Under the pieces are notes generated by a model. That model was not told where the DNA came from and made no database searches. It saw only the letters and a list, made by a program, of their open reading frames with translations. Positions 1,120 through 5,007 of a stretch of DNA of 5,732 nucleotides are shown here, piece by piece (the stretch's first letter is position 1; every line of letters starts with the position of its first letter). Origin of the DNA: Escherichia coli (GTDB lineage: Bacteria > Pseudomonadota > Gammaproteobacteria > Enterobacterales > Enterobacteriaceae); assembly GCF_030013595.1 (NCBI RefSeq), contig NZ_CP122774.1; one strand, 5' to 3'. The position numbers were made by a program, and so were the translations under genes.

Positions 1120-1227
1120 TGTAAACGAAAAAACCACCATGGCAGGTGGTTTTTCGAAGGTTATTTAATCCTGGCAGATTGAATAACCGTGGTAACAGCC
1201 TTGTGCGAGACGTGTCACCAAATCTGT
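1120..1227 (-). ncRNA. RNA I antisense copy-number control RNA (about 108 nt, approximate ends)
   Basis: The minus-strand terminator is the complement of gtaaacgaaaaaaccaccatggcaggtggttttt (1121-1154). The 5' end aligns with the conserved ccaaat.ctgtcc block (1218-1230). The minus-strand promoter (-10 complement agtgta at 1234-1239, -35 complement cttcaa at 1258-1263) matches the pMB1 RNA I promoter layout. Loop sequences differ from ColE1/pMB1. Confidence 0.7.
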
Positions 1228-1635
1228 CCTTTCAGTGTAGCCTCACTAAGGCCACCACTTCAAGAACTTTGAATACATCTCTCGCACATCCTGTTTACCA
1301 ATGGCTACCGCCACTGGCGATTTTTCGTGTCTGTTCCGGGTTGGACTCAAGATGATAGTTACCGGGACAACGTGGTAGTCGGGCTGAACGGGGGGTTCTT
1401 GCATACAGCCCAGCTTGGAGCGAACTGTCTAAACGGAACGGGACGTGGTGATTTAGGTAAAGCTTCCACCACAACACGGATGCCGCAGGACGGGAACAGG
1501 AGAGCGCAAGAGGGAGCCGCCAGGGGGAAACGCCTGGTATCTTTAAGTCCTGTCGGGTTTCGCCACCTCTGACTTGAGCGTCGATTTTTGTGATGCTCGT
1601 CAGGGGGGCGGAGCCTATGGAAAAACGCCAGCGGC
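1121..1635 (+). ncRNA. RNA II pre-primer transcript (approximate ends)
   Basis: Inferred from the promoter at 1084-1112 and the conserved origin switch region near 1620-1640. Ends are not determined. Confidence 0.65.
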
Positions 1636-1799
1636 GTGGCCTTCTCTGGGTTCTTGTTTTTTGCTCACATGTTTCTTTTGGTGTTATCCCCTGATTCTGT
1701 GGATAACCGCATTACCGTCTTTGAGTGAGCTGATACCGCTCGCCGCAGCCGAACGACCGAGCGTAGCGAGTCAGTGAGCGAGGAAGCGGAAGAGCGTCG

Positions 1800-1940
1800 G
1801 AAGTTGCATTTTCTCCTTACACATCTGTGCGGCATTTCACACCCGGCATGGCGCACTTTTCATACAATCCGCACTGATGCCGCATGGTTAAGCCAGTATA
1901 CACTCCGCTATCGCTACGTGACTGGGTCATGGCTGCGGCC
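1800..1940. other. bom/oriT (basis of mobility) region of a ColE1-type plasmid, expected to contain the nic site
   Basis: Near-identity, by recollection, to the pBR322/ColE1 bom segment (catacaatc.gc.ctgatgccgcat.gttaagccagtatacactccgctatcgctacgtgactgggtcatggctgcg), lying between ori and rop as in ColE1. Confidence 0.7.
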
Positions 1941-2018
1941 TGACGCGCCCTGACGGGCTTGTCTGCTCCCGGCATCCGCTCACAGACAAGCTGTGACCGT
2001 CTCCGGGAGCTGTATGTG

Positions 2019-2210
2019 TCAGAGGTTTTCACCGTCATCCCCGAAGCGTGCGAGGCAGCTGCGGTAAAGCTCATCGGCGTGGTCGTGAAGCGATTCACAG
2101 ATGTCTGCCTGTTCATCCGCGTCCAGTTCGTTGAGCTTTTCCAGCAGCGTTAATGTCTGGCTTCTGATAAAGCGGGCCATGTTAAGGGCGGTTTTTTCCT
2201 GTTTAGTCAC
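2019..2210 (-). CDS. rop: Rop/Rom, RNA I-RNA II interaction modulator (63 aa)
   Basis: Translation MTKQEKTALNMARFIRSQTLTLLEKLNELDADEQADICESLHDHADELYRSCLARFGDDGENL matches the ColE1/pBR322 Rop sequence as I remember it. Here the start codon is GTG (complement of 2208-2210), with GGAGG 6 nt upstream on the minus strand. Confidence 0.95.
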   Translation of the reverse strand: MTKQEKTALNMARFIRSQTLTLLEKLNELDADEQADICESLHDHADELYRSCLARFGDDGENL

Positions 2211-2250
2211 TGATGCCTCCGTGTAAGGGGGGATTTCTGTTCATGGGGTA

Positions 2251-2598
2251 ATGATACCGATGAAACGCGAGAGGATGCTCACGATACGGGTTACTGATGA
2301 TGAACATGCACGGTTACTGGAACGCTGTGAGGGTAAACAGCTGGCGGTATGGATGCGGCGGGTCTGTCTGGGTGAGCCGGTTGCCCGTTCCGGGAAGCTG
2401 CCGACACTGGCACCGCCGTTACTGCGCCAGCTGGCTGCCATCGGGAATAATCTGAATCAGACGGCGAGGAAGGTGAACAGCGGGCAGTGGTCTTCCGGTG
2501 ACCGGGTTCAGGTGGTGGCCGCACTGATGGCCATCGAGAGAGAGTTGCGCAGCTTACGGCAGGTCGTCAGGGAACATGGAGCGCGGGATGATAGTTAA
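2251..2598 (+). CDS. mbeC: Mobilisation protein MbeC (MobC-like relaxosome accessory protein). Alternative in-frame starts at 2260 and 2275 (MLTIRV).
   Basis: Translation ...MLTIRVTDDEHARLLERCEGKQLAVWMRRVCLGEP... is the MobC/MbeC N-terminal pattern; the 5' part is the same sequence retained as a remnant in pBR322. Stop TAA at 2596-2598 overlaps the mbeA start. Confidence 0.88.
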   Translation: MIPMKRERMLTIRVTDDEHARLLERCEGKQLAVWMRRVCLGEPVARSGKLPTLAPPLLRQLAAIGNNLNQTARKVNSGQWSSGDRVQVVAALMAIERELRSLRQVVREHGARDDS

Positions 2599-4330
2599 GT
2601 TTCATGCCAGGGGAAAAGGCGGTGGCAGTGGTCCGGTTGATTACCTGCTGGGAAGGGAGCGTAACCGGGAAGGGGCAACGGTGCTTCAGGGTAATCCGGA
2701 AGAAGTCCGGGAACTCATCGATGCCACGCCATTTGCGAAGAAATACACGTCAGGTGTTCTGTCGTTCGCGGAGAAGGAGCTGCCGCCTGGAGGGCGTGAA
2801 AAAGTGATGGCGAGCTTTGAGCGTGTACTGATGCCCGGTCTCGAGAAAAATCAGTACAGCATCCTGTGGGTGGAGCACCAGGACAAGGGACGGCTTGAGC
2901 TGAATTTTGTCATTCCGAACATGGAGCTACAGACCGGAAAACGCCTCCAGCCGTACTACGACCGGGCAGACAGGCCGAGAATTGATGCCTGGCAGACGCT
3001 GGTTAATCACCATTACGGGCTGCATGACCCCAACGCCCCGGAGAACCGCCGGACGCTGACCCTTCCTGATAACCTGCCGGAAACGAAACAGGCGCTTGCA
3101 GAGAGCGTCACACGCGGGATAGACGCTCTTTATCATGTCGGGGAGATAAAAGGCCGTCAGGATGTGATTCAGGCGCTCACAGAGGCAGGGCTTGAAGTGG
3201 TCAGGGTGACGCGAAGCAGTATCAGCATTGCAGACCCGAACGGTGGGAAGAATATCAGGCTGAAAGGAGCATTTTATGAGCAATCTTTTACAGACGGGCG
3301 CGGAGTTCGAGAAAAAGCTGAAAGAGAGAGCCGAATCTACAGAGACAATGCTGAACGACGAGTTCAGCAAGCTCGAAAAATCTGTAAGCAAGGCTGTGAC
3401 ATCAAACGAGACGAAAATCAAAGACGCTATAGCCCTGTTCACAGCTTCGACAGAGGAATCACTGAAAAAACACCGGGAAGGGGTGAAAGAGGCGATGATG
3501 CAGCACAGGAAGGACGTGTTAAAGCTGGCAGGGAATACGGGCATGATGTTACTGGGGATGGTCCTTTTCCTGTTTACCGTGAGTGGCGGGACGCTCTGGT
3601 ATCTTGGCGGGCGGATACAGGCGAACCTGGAAGAAATCAGGATACAGGAAGAAACATTGCAGAAACTGAACGCGAAGACATGGGGCGTGGAGTTTGTGCA
3701 GGACGGGAGAAGGAAATTTCTGGTCATCCCGCAGGGGAAATCGGCAACGGTGATTCCCTATCAGGAGAAGGACTGGGTACAACTGACGGAGTGACACAGA
3801 GTGACGGAGCTGGAAAGACATTTGCTGAACGCCTTAGAGCAACTGCAACAGGACTATATGCAGCGGCTGAGCGAATGGGAGAGCGCCTTCGTGGAATTGC
3901 AGAAAATGTTTTCGCTTACGCAACGGGACAACGCGATGCTGAACGAGCAGGTCATGCAGTTGAGTCAGCAGGTGCAGCACTTGAGCGAGCGGACAGAACG
4001 CTTGAGCCAGTTATACAGCGAGAACAGGAGATAAGGGACGAACGGCTGATACAGGAGCGCGAACATGAGTTATCCCTGGAGCGTGAGCGCCAGCTGGAAA
4101 TACAGGAACGGACACTGGATGGCATGGTAATCAGAGACAGGCTAAAATGTTGTCAGCGCGTTTCCGGTGCATTTTTTGGGATAATGGTTGGTTCGGGGGC
4201 ACCGGGAACGCGCTTCAGTCAGACCTTGCTGAAAACACAGGAACGCGTTAAAACGCATACGGGCGCGATTCTGGTGTGTCTTTTGTTGCTGTGTTTTGCC
4301 TCTATTGCCAGATCGCGCTCATTCCCCTGA
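2588..4330 (+). CDS. mbeA: Mobilisation relaxase MbeA (ColE1-type). 580 aa from ATG 2588 (the ORF track starts 4 codons earlier at 2576); 3' boundary should be verified.
   Basis: N-terminus MIVKFHARGKGGGSGPVDYLLGRE is the canonical relaxase start. The ORF overlaps the mbeC stop by 11 nt and contains mbeB and mbeD in the +1 frame, as in ColE1. The hydrophobic C-terminal tail (ILVCLLLLCFASIA) is atypical. Confidence 0.85.
   Translation: MIVKFHARGKGGGSGPVDYLLGRERNREGATVLQGNPEEVRELIDATPFAKKYTSGVLSFAEKELPPGGREKVMASFERVLMPGLEKNQYSILWVEHQDKGRLELNFVIPNMELQTGKRLQPYYDRADRPRIDAWQTLVNHHYGLHDPNAPENRRTLTLPDNLPETKQALAESVTRGIDALYHVGEIKGRQDVIQALTEAGLEVVRVTRSSISIADPNGGKNIRLKGAFYEQSFTDGRGVREKAERESRIYRDNAERRVQQARKICKQGCDIKRDENQRRYSPVHSFDRGITEKTPGRGERGDDAAQEGRVKAGREYGHDVTGDGPFPVYREWRDALVSWRADTGEPGRNQDTGRNIAETEREDMGRGVCAGREKEISGHPAGEIGNGDSLSGEGLGTTDGVTQSDGAGKTFAERLRATATGLYAAAERMGERLRGIAENVFAYATGQRDAERAGHAVESAGAALERADRTLEPVIQREQEIRDERLIQEREHELSLERERQLEIQERTLDGMVIRDRLKCCQRVSGAFFGIMVGSGAPGTRFSQTLLKTQERVKTHTGAILVCLLLLCFASIARSRSFP
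3276..3794 (+). CDS. mbeB: Mobilisation protein MbeB (172 aa), nested in the +1 frame of mbeA
   Basis: 172-codon ORF with AGGAG (3265-3269) 6 nt upstream of ATG 3276. Position and length agree with ColE1 mbeB; it has a central hydrophobic segment (MMLLGMVLFLFTVSGGTLWYL). Confidence 0.8.
   Translation: MSNLLQTGAEFEKKLKERAESTETMLNDEFSKLEKSVSKAVTSNETKIKDAIALFTASTEESLKKHREGVKEAMMQHRKDVLKLAGNTGMMLLGMVLFLFTVSGGTLWYLGGRIQANLEEIRIQEETLQKLNAKTWGVEFVQDGRRKFLVIPQGKSATVIPYQEKDWVQLTE
3801..4034 (+). CDS. mbeD: Mobilisation protein MbeD (77 aa), same frame as mbeB, GTG start 6 nt after the mbeB stop
   Basis: GTG at 3801 with GGAG 10 nt upstream. Coiled-coil-like sequence (LEQLQQDYMQRLSEWESAFVELQKMF...). 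Position corresponds to ColE1 mbeD. Confidence 0.7.
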   Translation: MTELERHLLNALEQLQQDYMQRLSEWESAFVELQKMFSLTQRDNAMLNEQVMQLSQQVQHLSERTERLSQLYSENRR

Positions 4331-4435
4331 ACTTCTGTTTTCCCGCTCCGGTCCCCGTCTTCTTCGCTTCCGAAAGCATGAAAAAAATCCGTTTCAGCTG
4401 TCTCTGGCTGGCAATTCCTGCGTGATTCACATGGC

Positions 4436-4577
4436 TGCATAGCTATGCATGTGGTTAAAATTTACCGGGTGCGATCGCGGCAGTTTTTCGGGTGGTTTGT
4501 TGCCATTTTTACCTGTCTGCTGCCGTGATCGCACCGAACGCGTTTCTGCGGTGCGGGCAACGGATGTTATGGTAAAT
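4436..4577. other. cer/psi-like Xer site-specific recombination (multimer resolution) site: accessory region with a palindromic box plus XerC/XerD core
   Basis: Core GGTGCGGGCAA-CGGATG-TTATGGTAAAT (4550-4577). The right arm is identical to the cer/dif XerD arm TTATGGTAAAT as I recall it, and the left arm is GGTGCG..CAA like the XerC arms. A perfect 14-bp palindrome TGCATAGCTATGCA (4436-4449) lies about 100 bp upstream, where cer carries its ArgR box. Confidence 0.55.
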
Positions 4578-4960: not shown

Positions 4961-5007
4961 GGAGCACAAGGAGCACAGGGAGAACCATCGAGCACAACGA
5001 GCACCGC
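4961..5007. repeat. Five tandem degenerate 9-bp repeats (G)GAGCACA-type
   Basis: ggagcacaa | ggagcacag | ggagaaccatc | gagcacaac | gagcaccgc, read directly from the sequence, immediately upstream of the AT-rich tract. Confidence 0.6.

Follow-up and report, generated by a model that had tools for sequence, protein, structure and literature searches.

An 11-bp deletion near the 3' end of mbeA extends the relaxase reading frame of a ColE1-type Escherichia coli plasmid into the spacer before cer

Results

Organization of the plasmid and its mobilization genes

The stretch of DNA analyzed here (the window; 5,732 nucleotides of the E. coli contig NZ_CP122774.1) is a 5.7-kb ColE1-type mobilizable plasmid with the standard ColE1-type mobilization module (Table 1). 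The order of rop, oriT, mbeC, mbeA with the nested genes mbeB and mbeD, and cer is the same as in ColE1 (NC_001371; MOB-HEN/MOBP5). DNA identity between the two plasmids is 92.8% over positions 1493–4123, residues 1–229 of MbeA share 98% identity, and ColE1 also matches the window in the nic core CTGGCTTA (sequence taken from PMC5703827) and the catalytic motifs. Differences were found in the spacer between mbeA and cer, which measures about 300 bp in the window and about 60 bp in ColE1, and in oriT; unlike in ColE1, 23 bp are missing between the inverted repeat and nic, at about position 1935, while the nic core and the repeat are both present.

Table 1. Features of the window, with position, strand and supporting evidence
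Feature	Position	Strand	Evidence and remarks
RNAI	1125..1226	-	Rfam RF00106, 77.1 bits
oriT/bom	1889..1991	-	nic core CTGGCTTA at 1896-1889; inverted repeat 1957-1965/1983-1991
Rop ORF	2019..2210	-	identical to the 63-aa C-terminal part of the Rop-containing ORF of ColE1
mbeC/mobC accessory gene	2251..2598	+	PF05713 MobC; PF21983 NikA-like N-terminal region
mbeA, genuine part (codons 1-512), MOB-HEN relaxase	2588..4123	+	NF047848; invariant catalytic residues; variation at codon position 3
Antisense ORF, not a gene	2927..3727	-	266 aa; no family match; length varies among relatives
mbeB, nested in mbeA (+1)	3276..3794	+	172 aa; PF04837 MbeB_N, 2.7e-20; AAGGAG 7 nt upstream
mbeD, nested in mbeA (+1)	3801..4034	+	77 aa; GTG start; GGAG upstream; NF033829, 116.8 bits; PF04899
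11-bp deletion junction	4123..4124	+	codons 513-517 (PSLGW) lost; frame shifted past TAA
68-codon read-through tail and TGA	4124..4330	+	translated mbeA-cer spacer; hydrophobic segment aa 560-574
cer-like multimer-resolution site	4432..4577	+	about 87% identical to the ColE1 cer region; XerC/D-type core 4550-4577

The open reading frame in the mbeA frame extends from 2576 to 4330 and holds 584 aa when counted from its first ATG. If translation starts at the ATG at 2588, it comprises 580 codons followed by TGA at 4328–4330, the length and end given in the original prediction. This ATG is preceded by GGAG 7 nt upstream, yields the family-typical N-terminus MIVKFHARG, and is the same start that PGAP chose in NZ_CP122590.1, a 99%-identical plasmid. 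The start assigned by PGAP to mbeC, which is annotated as MobC in relatives, corresponds to position 2275, and mbeC overlaps the start of mbeA by 11 nt. The MbeA protein scored 881.3 bits against NF047848 (cut-off 500), with aa 1–509 covered, and 30.7 bits against PF03432 Relaxase (cut-off 24.6). In MOB-HEN relaxases, motif I provides the catalytic tyrosine (Y19), and in motif III the triad His-Glu-Asn (HxDx4ELNF) replaces three histidines (PMC9282650; PMC3297438). Y19, H97, D99, E104, L105, N106, and F107 are all present in the window MbeA and are invariant in an alignment of 83 homologous sequences. Outside the overlaps with nested genes, variable sites in mbeA fell mostly on codon position 3 (50/63 and 12/14).

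Both mbeB and mbeD lie wholly inside mbeA in the +1 frame, as (3276–2588) mod 3 and (3801–2588) mod 3 both equal 1; coordinates and family matches thus bear out the ColE1 arrangement that had been predicted. The mbeB ORF is annotated as MbeB in relatives and open in 5/5 of them, although one allele is only 46% identical, and the mbeD ORF is likewise open in all five. Dual coding constraint had been proposed for the whole nested stretch. For the mbeD overlap this held, as it is the least variable stretch (6.4% variable sites) and lacks a third-position bias, whereas variation within the operon peaks in the mbeB overlap (39.7% of sites among six sequences), where both frames nevertheless stay open. 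The long minus-strand ORF opposite this region, already suspected of being no gene, had no protein-family match in family profile searches, and its length changes from 266 aa in the window to 205 aa in two relatives (L001 and L002) and 180 aa in ColE1. Its stop-free run of 276 codons compares with a codon-shuffle mean of 177 (sd 44) and was reached by 3% of the shuffles; the mbeA sense strand is 61% purine here. The antisense ORF is therefore largely explained by base composition and is not a gene.

An 11-bp deletion removes the end of mbeA

The original prediction took ColE1 MbeA to be shorter, about 517 aa, and considered a frameshift, natural variation, or simply a longer relaxase as the source of the additional 3' length. 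The alignment with ColE1 MbeA that it called for located a frameshifting gap at the 3' end. Counted from MIVKF, ColE1 MbeA is indeed 517 aa long and ends in LDGPSLGW, and in ColE1 and four other relatives the protein stops after DGPSLGW at 517–521 aa. Alignments with ColE1, p12579_3, and a 5775-bp plasmid agree that the 11 bases CCTTCGCTGGG are missing after position 4123 of the window, where a 68-aa tail has replaced the ColE1 residues PSLGW. A naturally longer relaxase did not find support, since alignments of the best 120 of 2537 homologues stop at or before 89% of the query, and no collinear functional MbeA of equal length was found among these 120. A repeat-mediated origin of the deletion was considered and rejected, as direct reading of the flanking DNA revealed no useful microhomology.

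The closest relatives, 5775-bp E. coli plasmids (for example NZ_CP122590.1) and p12579_3 (NC_017654.1), are 99% identical over the whole window and share its cargo, namely a YjaZ-family ORF, an HTH regulator, and an sraL-like RNA. In contrast to the window, they carry an intact 517-aa mbeA (WP_000635795.1), an intact oriT, and one extra copy of a 9-bp repeat. Apart from these gaps, 17 substitutions separate them from the window, 16 of which lie inside mbeA, and the mbeA haplotype of the window is a mosaic. The 23-bp and 9-bp deletions were found in no other fetched record, and none of the 538 matching PLSDB records contained the junction of the 23-bp oriT deletion. The 11 bases could conversely be read as an insertion in one clade, but ColE1 and homologues at 37–58% identity end at the same point, which contradicts this reading. 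The mbeA of the window is a derived mutant allele, and a minority one.

The tail is translated spacer DNA

The tail ends in GAILVCLLLLCFASIARSRSFP, contains four cysteines, and has a net charge of +8. Its Kyte-Doolittle hydropathy peaks at 2.97 in a 15-residue stretch (AILVCLLLLCFASIA) and is 2.08 when 19 residues are considered, while the maximum within residues 1–512 is 0.66, in agreement with the hydrophobic, Cys/Leu-rich end at 4330 that had been noticed before. The hydrophobic, Cys/Leu-rich, and basic character follows from translation of T-rich intergenic DNA. None of the best 120 of 2537 homologues covered the tail; full-length homologues among the 120 matches listed measure 480–532 aa, and the NCBIfam MbeA model ends at aa 509, short of the tail. 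Family profile searches gave no significant protein-family match for it, the single sub-threshold match being CitG (18.6 bits, cut-off 27). In an AlphaFold model, residues 518–555 had pLDDT values below 50 and residues 553–575 formed a helix. A tail anchor would be expected to show a conserved hydrophobic helix of at least about 19 residues; here the hydropathy over 19 residues is high enough and the segment is predicted to be helical, but the core measures about 15 residues, and the frame is not conserved in relatives.

When the same frame was followed in undeleted relatives, 10/10 differences within the first 52 codons were nonsynonymous. In three relatives (L016, L017, and L018), indels of 1–2 bp break the frame in its hydrophobic part and leave ORFs of 54–100 codons, and PGAP calls no gene over the tail DNA in any relative. 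Fusion of mbeA to a downstream, mbeE-like gene was rejected on the basis of the substitution pattern and the frame-breaking indels. The tail is translated non-coding spacer and not an evolved domain. A weak match to a terminator consensus was observed in the tail DNA at 4261–4281.

A conserved motif at the C-terminus of the MbeA family

The window MbeA, at 580 aa, has neither the family-typical length of about 480–532 aa nor the C-terminal end of the GP(S/T)L type. This is a lesion within a family member and not evidence against its being an MbeA. Among 101 full-length representatives of 90% clusters, 72 end in GP[STKG][LMIP] followed by 0–2 residues, and another 15 have REYG[DE] at their end. 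Of 134 representatives that are more distant, glycine was found at position -4 in 68, M/L/F/I at -3 in 77, S/G at -2 in 70, and R/M/L/F at -1 in 103; the complete four-residue pattern occurred at the terminus of 52/134, compared to 0.36 expected. To judge from these protein ends, close relatives carry the motif as GP(S/T)L(G)(W/L/M), and its form in distant relatives is G-hydrophobic-(S/G)-(R/M/L/F). Unlike this terminal motif, the 30 residues before it show little conservation. The motif is not universal, as its stricter patterns are missing in about half of the distant representatives, and the databases hold other MbeA variants with altered C-termini (P0020 and P0043). The searchable literature yielded no experimental work on the MbeA C-terminus.

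Distribution of the deletion allele

The same 11-bp junction was present in three annotated and independently assembled records (CP057415.1, NZ_JBWDPV010000008.1, and NZ_JBWDPN010000002.1); the loci that show it include L001 and L005–L014. A 580-aa protein (P0121) is found on 26 contigs, with 30 blocks listed in the index, and all eight of its loci that were fetched (8/8, from different samples) contained the junction. Besides the three other annotated records, the deletion occurs in at least 24 contigs. Both pRHB27-C20_8 (CP057415.1) and P0121 share the deletion and an identical 68-aa tail with the window; six residues (T116S, T156I, and HPAG380-383PSVR) distinguish P0121 from the window protein, and pRHB27-C20_8 carries a different cargo (a cytosine methyltransferase) and, unlike the window, an intact oriT. 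At least three backbones bear the extended allele, namely the YjaZ/HTH 5.8-kb type, a ParA type, and a type with sul2 and an IS91-family element. Among records spanning the junction, the deletion was found in 1/99 of PLSDB (about 1%) and in 2/79 complete E. coli records (about 2.5%), and in both of the latter mbeA is additionally split by IS91. The 11-bp deletion is real and circulating, but rare. As the allele sits on several backbones and, in the window, on a mosaic mbeA haplotype, it has persisted and spread or recombined, which speaks against its doing strong harm to the success of the plasmid.

Discussion

The mobilization system and its nested ColE1 arrangement are already known, and the window carries a mutant allele of it; the extended reading frame results from a frameshift in a well-known gene and does not represent a novel type of relaxase. 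The 11-bp deletion just before the end of the gene removes PSLGW and carries the frame past the TAA stop. With the stop out of frame, translation continues into the mbeA–cer-like spacer, where ribosomes run through 68 codons to the TGA at 4328–4330. The resulting MbeA lacks the conserved C-terminal motif and gains a segment that may be membrane-seeking or aggregation-prone. The relaxase domain (Tyr19 and the HEN metal site), mbeB, mbeD, and mbeC are intact, and since both the domain and the accessory genes are preserved, nicking at oriT is probably retained. The most likely effect, which we favor slightly, would be that the hand-over to the transfer machinery of a helper is reduced or abolished, or that the protein is less stable; impaired mobilization appears likely because a family-conserved motif at the extreme C-terminus is destroyed.

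The two further short deletions of the window (23 and 9 bp) could hint at an error-prone assembly, in which case the 11 bases would really be present and the 580-codon frame would be artefactual. Such an error has a practically negligible probability, given the identical junction in three independently assembled records and eight further contigs, the exact 580-aa product on 26 contigs, and the loss of 11 bp from non-repetitive sequence, which is atypical of read errors. A genuinely longer relaxase, with the tail as a functional membrane anchor or as a fusion to a small downstream mbeE-like ORF, would fit with the 68-codon frame that undeleted relatives keep open behind an ATG overlapping the mbeA stop (ATGGTAA), with the transmembrane-like hydropathy and predicted helix of the tail segment, and with the persistence of the allele on several backbones. 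Against it stand the exclusively nonsynonymous differences, the frame broken at the hydrophobic part in three relatives, the lack of a family match, of a PGAP call, and of coverage in the best 120 of 2537 homologues, and a hydrophobic stretch of only about 15 residues; we consider this explanation very unlikely, and the tail as a gain-of-function membrane anchor in particular extremely so.

Alternatively, the deletion might be a polymorphism without effect, in which case MbeA could do without its extreme C-terminus and the extended protein would work normally. The intact catalytic domain and accessory genes, the occurrence of the allele in many samples and on several backbones, and the other C-terminally altered variants in the databases are all compatible with neutrality. 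Nevertheless, the family conserves the motif at its terminal position but shows little conservation over the 30 residues before it, the allele is rare, and both E. coli records carrying it have mbeA split by IS91. Neutrality is therefore a serious possibility, albeit not the one we prefer. Like the mbeA lesion, the unique 23-bp oriT deletion may point towards decay of mobilization in the window plasmid.

The C-terminal motif of the family may be more interesting than the long frame itself. We tentatively suggest, as an idea that is rather unlikely in its entirety, that the coupling protein or type IV secretion system of a helper may recognize this undescribed motif as a signal for docking or translocation. 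The window allele, in which the motif is deleted and the end buried, would then be a natural transfer-defective relaxase and, together with the oriT deletion and the IS91 hits in sister plasmids, might mark a lineage of small plasmids abandoning mobilization. As a natural mutant, the allele is suited to testing how MOB-HEN relaxases are recognized by helper transfer systems.

Tools that derive mobilizability from the relaxase domain would score the window plasmid as mobilizable despite the losses at the C-terminus and the 23 bp in oriT, and the sister plasmid CP057415.1 is already scored as mobilizable by MOB-suite/PLSDB. The gene tables of PLSDB never list mbeA, even for ColE1; widespread pseudogenization of mbeA was rejected as an explanation, since these tables are incomplete. 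RefSeq annotation of E. coli does call mbeA, and according to a preprint, PGAP formerly mis-called mbeA as a pseudogene in 487 plasmids.

The 11-bp deletion at the mbeA 3′ end

The window, a small plasmid of the ColE1 type, shares 99% identity with E. coli plasmids of 5775 bp. Its mobilization region has matches in 1163 PLSDB plasmids, of which almost every one is typed mobilizable. The ORF list bore out every coordinate of the original prediction: the mbeA frame indeed runs for 580 codons from ATG 2588 to the stop ending at 4330, mbeB and mbeD are nested in its +1 frame, and the antisense ORF lies where it had been placed. ATG 2588 is preceded by GGAG, yields the family N-terminus MIVKFHARG and is the start chosen by PGAP in a 99%-identical plasmid. 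In a family scan the protein matched NF047848 with 881 bits (cut-off 500), only residues 1-509 being covered.

Features of the window, with variable sites of mbeA by codon position in six aligned sequences
Feature	Position	Strand	Variable sites, codon position 1/2/3	Variable (% of sites)	Remarks
RNAI	1125-1226
nic core CTGGCTTA	1889-1896	-			oriT; core sequence from PMC5703827
oriT inverted repeat	1957-1991
rop	2019-2210	-
MobC/MbeC gene	upstream of mbeA				PF05713, PF21983 matches
mbeA ORF	2588-4330	+			580 aa from ATG 2588; 584 aa from ATG 2576 (ORF list)
5′ non-overlapped mbeA	2588-3275		8/5/50	9.2
Antisense ORF	2927-3727	-			266 aa (ORF list)
mbeB (overlap)	3276-3794	+	76/75/55	39.7	inside mbeA, +1 frame; AAGGAG 7 nt upstream; PF04837 match
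mbeD (overlap)	3801-4034	+	5/3/7	6.4	inside mbeA, +1 frame; GTG start; NF033829, PF04899 matches
3′ non-overlapped mbeA	4035-4123		0/2/12	15.7
cer-like multimer-resolution site	4432-4577				~87% identical to ColE1 cer

In ColE1 (NC_001371), p12579_3 and three more relatives, MbeA has 517-521 aa and ends in ...ERTLDGPSLGW*, in agreement with the length of about 517 aa that had been given for ColE1. The suspicion of a frameshift was also right, as alignment with ColE1 and the relatives places the loss of 11 bases (CCTTCGCTGGG) directly after position 4123. The ancestral reading GAT GGC CCT TCG CTG GGA TGG TAA is replaced by GAT GGC ATG GTA ATC AGA...; five codons are therefore gone, TAA is out of frame, and read-through adds 68 codons up to TGA 4328-4330 (517 - 5 + 68 = 580). 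The 517-aa form is ancestral and the deletion derived, since ColE1 MbeA and homologues of 37-58% identity all stop at one point. The window carries a known system with a mutant mbeA allele. The catalytic residues Y19, H97, D99, E104 and N106, invariant among 83 homologues, are present, and mbeB, mbeD and mbeC are untouched by the deletion.

The derived 11-bp deletion is both real and rare. Its exact junction was contiguous in only one of 99 PLSDB records spanning it (CP057415.1, from UK pig faeces); 2 of 79 spanning E. coli records, both of them assemblies from UK pigs, had it as well. P0121, the 580-aa MbeA of CP057415.1, occurs on 26 contigs and its 584-aa version on seven. Eight fetched loci with the junction represent at least three backbones, namely a YjaZ/HTH type (as in the window), a ParA type, and a type with sul2 plus an IS91-family element. 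The window's own MbeA was absent from the protein collection; between it and P0121 there are differences at 17 nucleotides and six residues. Several of these are common to other alleles (pSD5, pU90-3, ColE1), so the haplotype is a mosaic, which would imply recombination among co-circulating ColE1-type plasmids. Four clustered substitutions at 3726-3734, changing PSVR to HPAG in MbeA and LPY to IPQ in MbeB, also occur in pSD5 and pU90-3; twelve further substitutions, mostly at third codon positions, lie at 2788-3274.

The tail is a translated spacer

The 68-codon tail is translated spacer and contains no domain. None of the best 120 of 2537 homologue matches aligned past 89% of the query, and full-length MbeA homologues among these best 120 had 480-532 aa. 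Family scans of the tail gave no significant match and one sub-threshold match to CitG. The spacer DNA (4124-4431) is common to 218 PLSDB plasmids and annotated as a gene in none. In undeleted relatives the tail frame is open from an ATG overlapping the mbeA stop. Over the first 52 codons of this frame, however, 10 of 10 differences are nonsynonymous, and further on, in three loci (L016-L018), indels of 1-2 bp shift the frame precisely where the hydrophobic part lies, the resulting ORFs having 54 to 100 codons. The purine fraction drops at the junction, from 0.61 in mbeA to 0.49 in the tail DNA. The tail is hydrophobic and contains Cys, as had been noticed: the Kyte-Doolittle value is 2.97 for the core AILVCLLLLCFASIA and 2.08 over a stretch of 19 residues, against a maximum of 0.66 elsewhere in the protein, and the tail holds four Cys with a net charge of +8. 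AlphaFold gave low confidence for residues 518-555 and a helix at 553-575.

A conserved C-terminal motif is lost

The extreme C-terminus of MbeA-family proteins is the fixed place of a conserved motif, which the deletion removes. The survey covered MbeA homologues P0001-P0284, the window counterpart being ancestral codons 512-517. The motif reads GP(S/T)L plus 0-2 residues in close relatives and G-hydrophobic-S/G-R/M/L/F in distant ones. Among 101 full-length representatives of 90% clusters, 72 ended in GP[STKG][LMIP] plus 0-2 residues and 15 in REYG[DE]; top-residue frequencies were 0.74 (G512), 0.82 (P513) and 0.67 (L515), and most of the 30 positions before the motif lay at 0.1-0.5. In 134 distant representatives (50% clusters), Gly was found at position -4 in 68, M/L/F/I at -3 in 77, S/G at -2 in 70 and R/M/L/F at -1 in 103; the four-residue pattern stood at the terminus in 52, compared with 0.36 expected from internal 4-mers.

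Such fixation at a free C-terminus suggests a recognition signal. C-terminal type IV secretion signals are established (review PMC3297438), and by analogy the partner of the motif could be the coupling protein of the helper. In the searchable literature we found neither a prior description of the motif nor experiments on it as a recognition signal. The motif is the one mildly novel by-product of this analysis, and the window allele is its natural knockout.

We lean towards a functional impairment of MbeA by the deletion. The 580-aa allele could instead be nearly neutral, a reading we hold to be possible but rather doubtful; that the allele occurs on several backbones speaks against its being a heavy burden on plasmid persistence. 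Plasmids carrying it could also be mobilized by the relaxase of a co-resident ColE1-type plasmid, acting in trans.

Signs of decay in the mobilization module

Compared with all relatives, the window has a 23-bp deletion (cgccccgacacccgcaaggtcaa) at 1935-1936 in oriT/bom, between the nic core and the inverted repeat, which shortens the distance between the two. Its junction was found in 0 of 538 matching PLSDB records and 0 of 19 fetched loci. The deletion may reduce oriT function, or an error of assembly may have produced it. In the two E. coli assemblies from UK pigs that have the 11-bp junction (L005, NZ_JBWDPV010000008.1, at 6164-8467; L006, NZ_JBWDPN010000002.1), an IS91-family insertion in the 11-bp-deleted backbone splits mbeA and mbeB. 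Together with this split mbeA, the 23-bp deletion, if genuine, is a sign of decay of the mobilization module.

Dual coding and the antisense ORF

The expected dual coding constraint was visible in the mbeD overlap; the mbeB overlap is instead the most variable region, though both frames are open there. The pattern of variable sites shows ordinary purifying selection in the non-overlapped parts of mbeA and joint constraint in the mbeD overlap. Variability in the mbeB overlap is driven by the divergent allele of L016 (NZ_CP010188.1), in which MbeA and MbeB are 41-46% identical to the window over this stretch and the flanking mbeA parts 96-97%; the mbeA and mbeB frames are open in every relative, L016 included. 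The mbeB-overlapped part of MbeA is largely a predicted disordered linker (pLDDT ~30, residues 285-410).

Five proteins of 390-403 aa (P0026, P0027, P0029, P0030 and P0032) combine an MbeA start (MIVKFH...) with an MbeB C-terminus (...KDWVQLTE or ...KEWVHLKE). They are frameshift fusions in which the mbeA frame runs over into that of the nested mbeB, so lesions in the overprinted region recur in public assemblies. PLSDB gene tables lack mbeA for every relative, ColE1 included. According to a preprint (10.1101/2023.11.08.566193), PGAP had wrongly called the locus a pseudogene in 487 plasmids; in the RefSeq records of E. coli it is now listed as 'plasmid mobilization relaxase MbeA'.

The antisense ORF is not a gene, as had been thought probable. 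Family scans gave no significant match, and its length is not constant: ColE1 has 180 aa, L001 (CP057415.1) and L002 have 205 aa, and the window has 266 aa. The stop-free run of 276 codons (181 in L016) compares with 177 (sd 44) in mbeA codon shuffles and was reached by 3% of them; antisense stops are depleted because the sense strand is purine-rich.

Other plasmid features

The core of the cer-like site, GGTGCGGGCAA-CGGATG-TTATGGTAAAT, has a central region of 6 bp, compared with 8 bp in ColE1. Of the spacer that precedes the cer-like site, about 60% (4244-4428) also shows 81% identity with Yersinia pestis pPCP1. At 4998, the window has one 9-bp unit (GAGCACAAT) fewer than the 5775-bp relatives. 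This change in the number of tandem repeats is specific to the window and falls where no gene is annotated in the relatives. Immediately following the YjaZ-family ORF (1-495), a full-length Rfam match to sraL (RF01408) was found at 496-629 on the minus strand (84.7 bits, gathering score 39). As sraL is a chromosomal family of Hfq-binding sRNAs, its occurrence on a small ColE1-type plasmid was unexpected.
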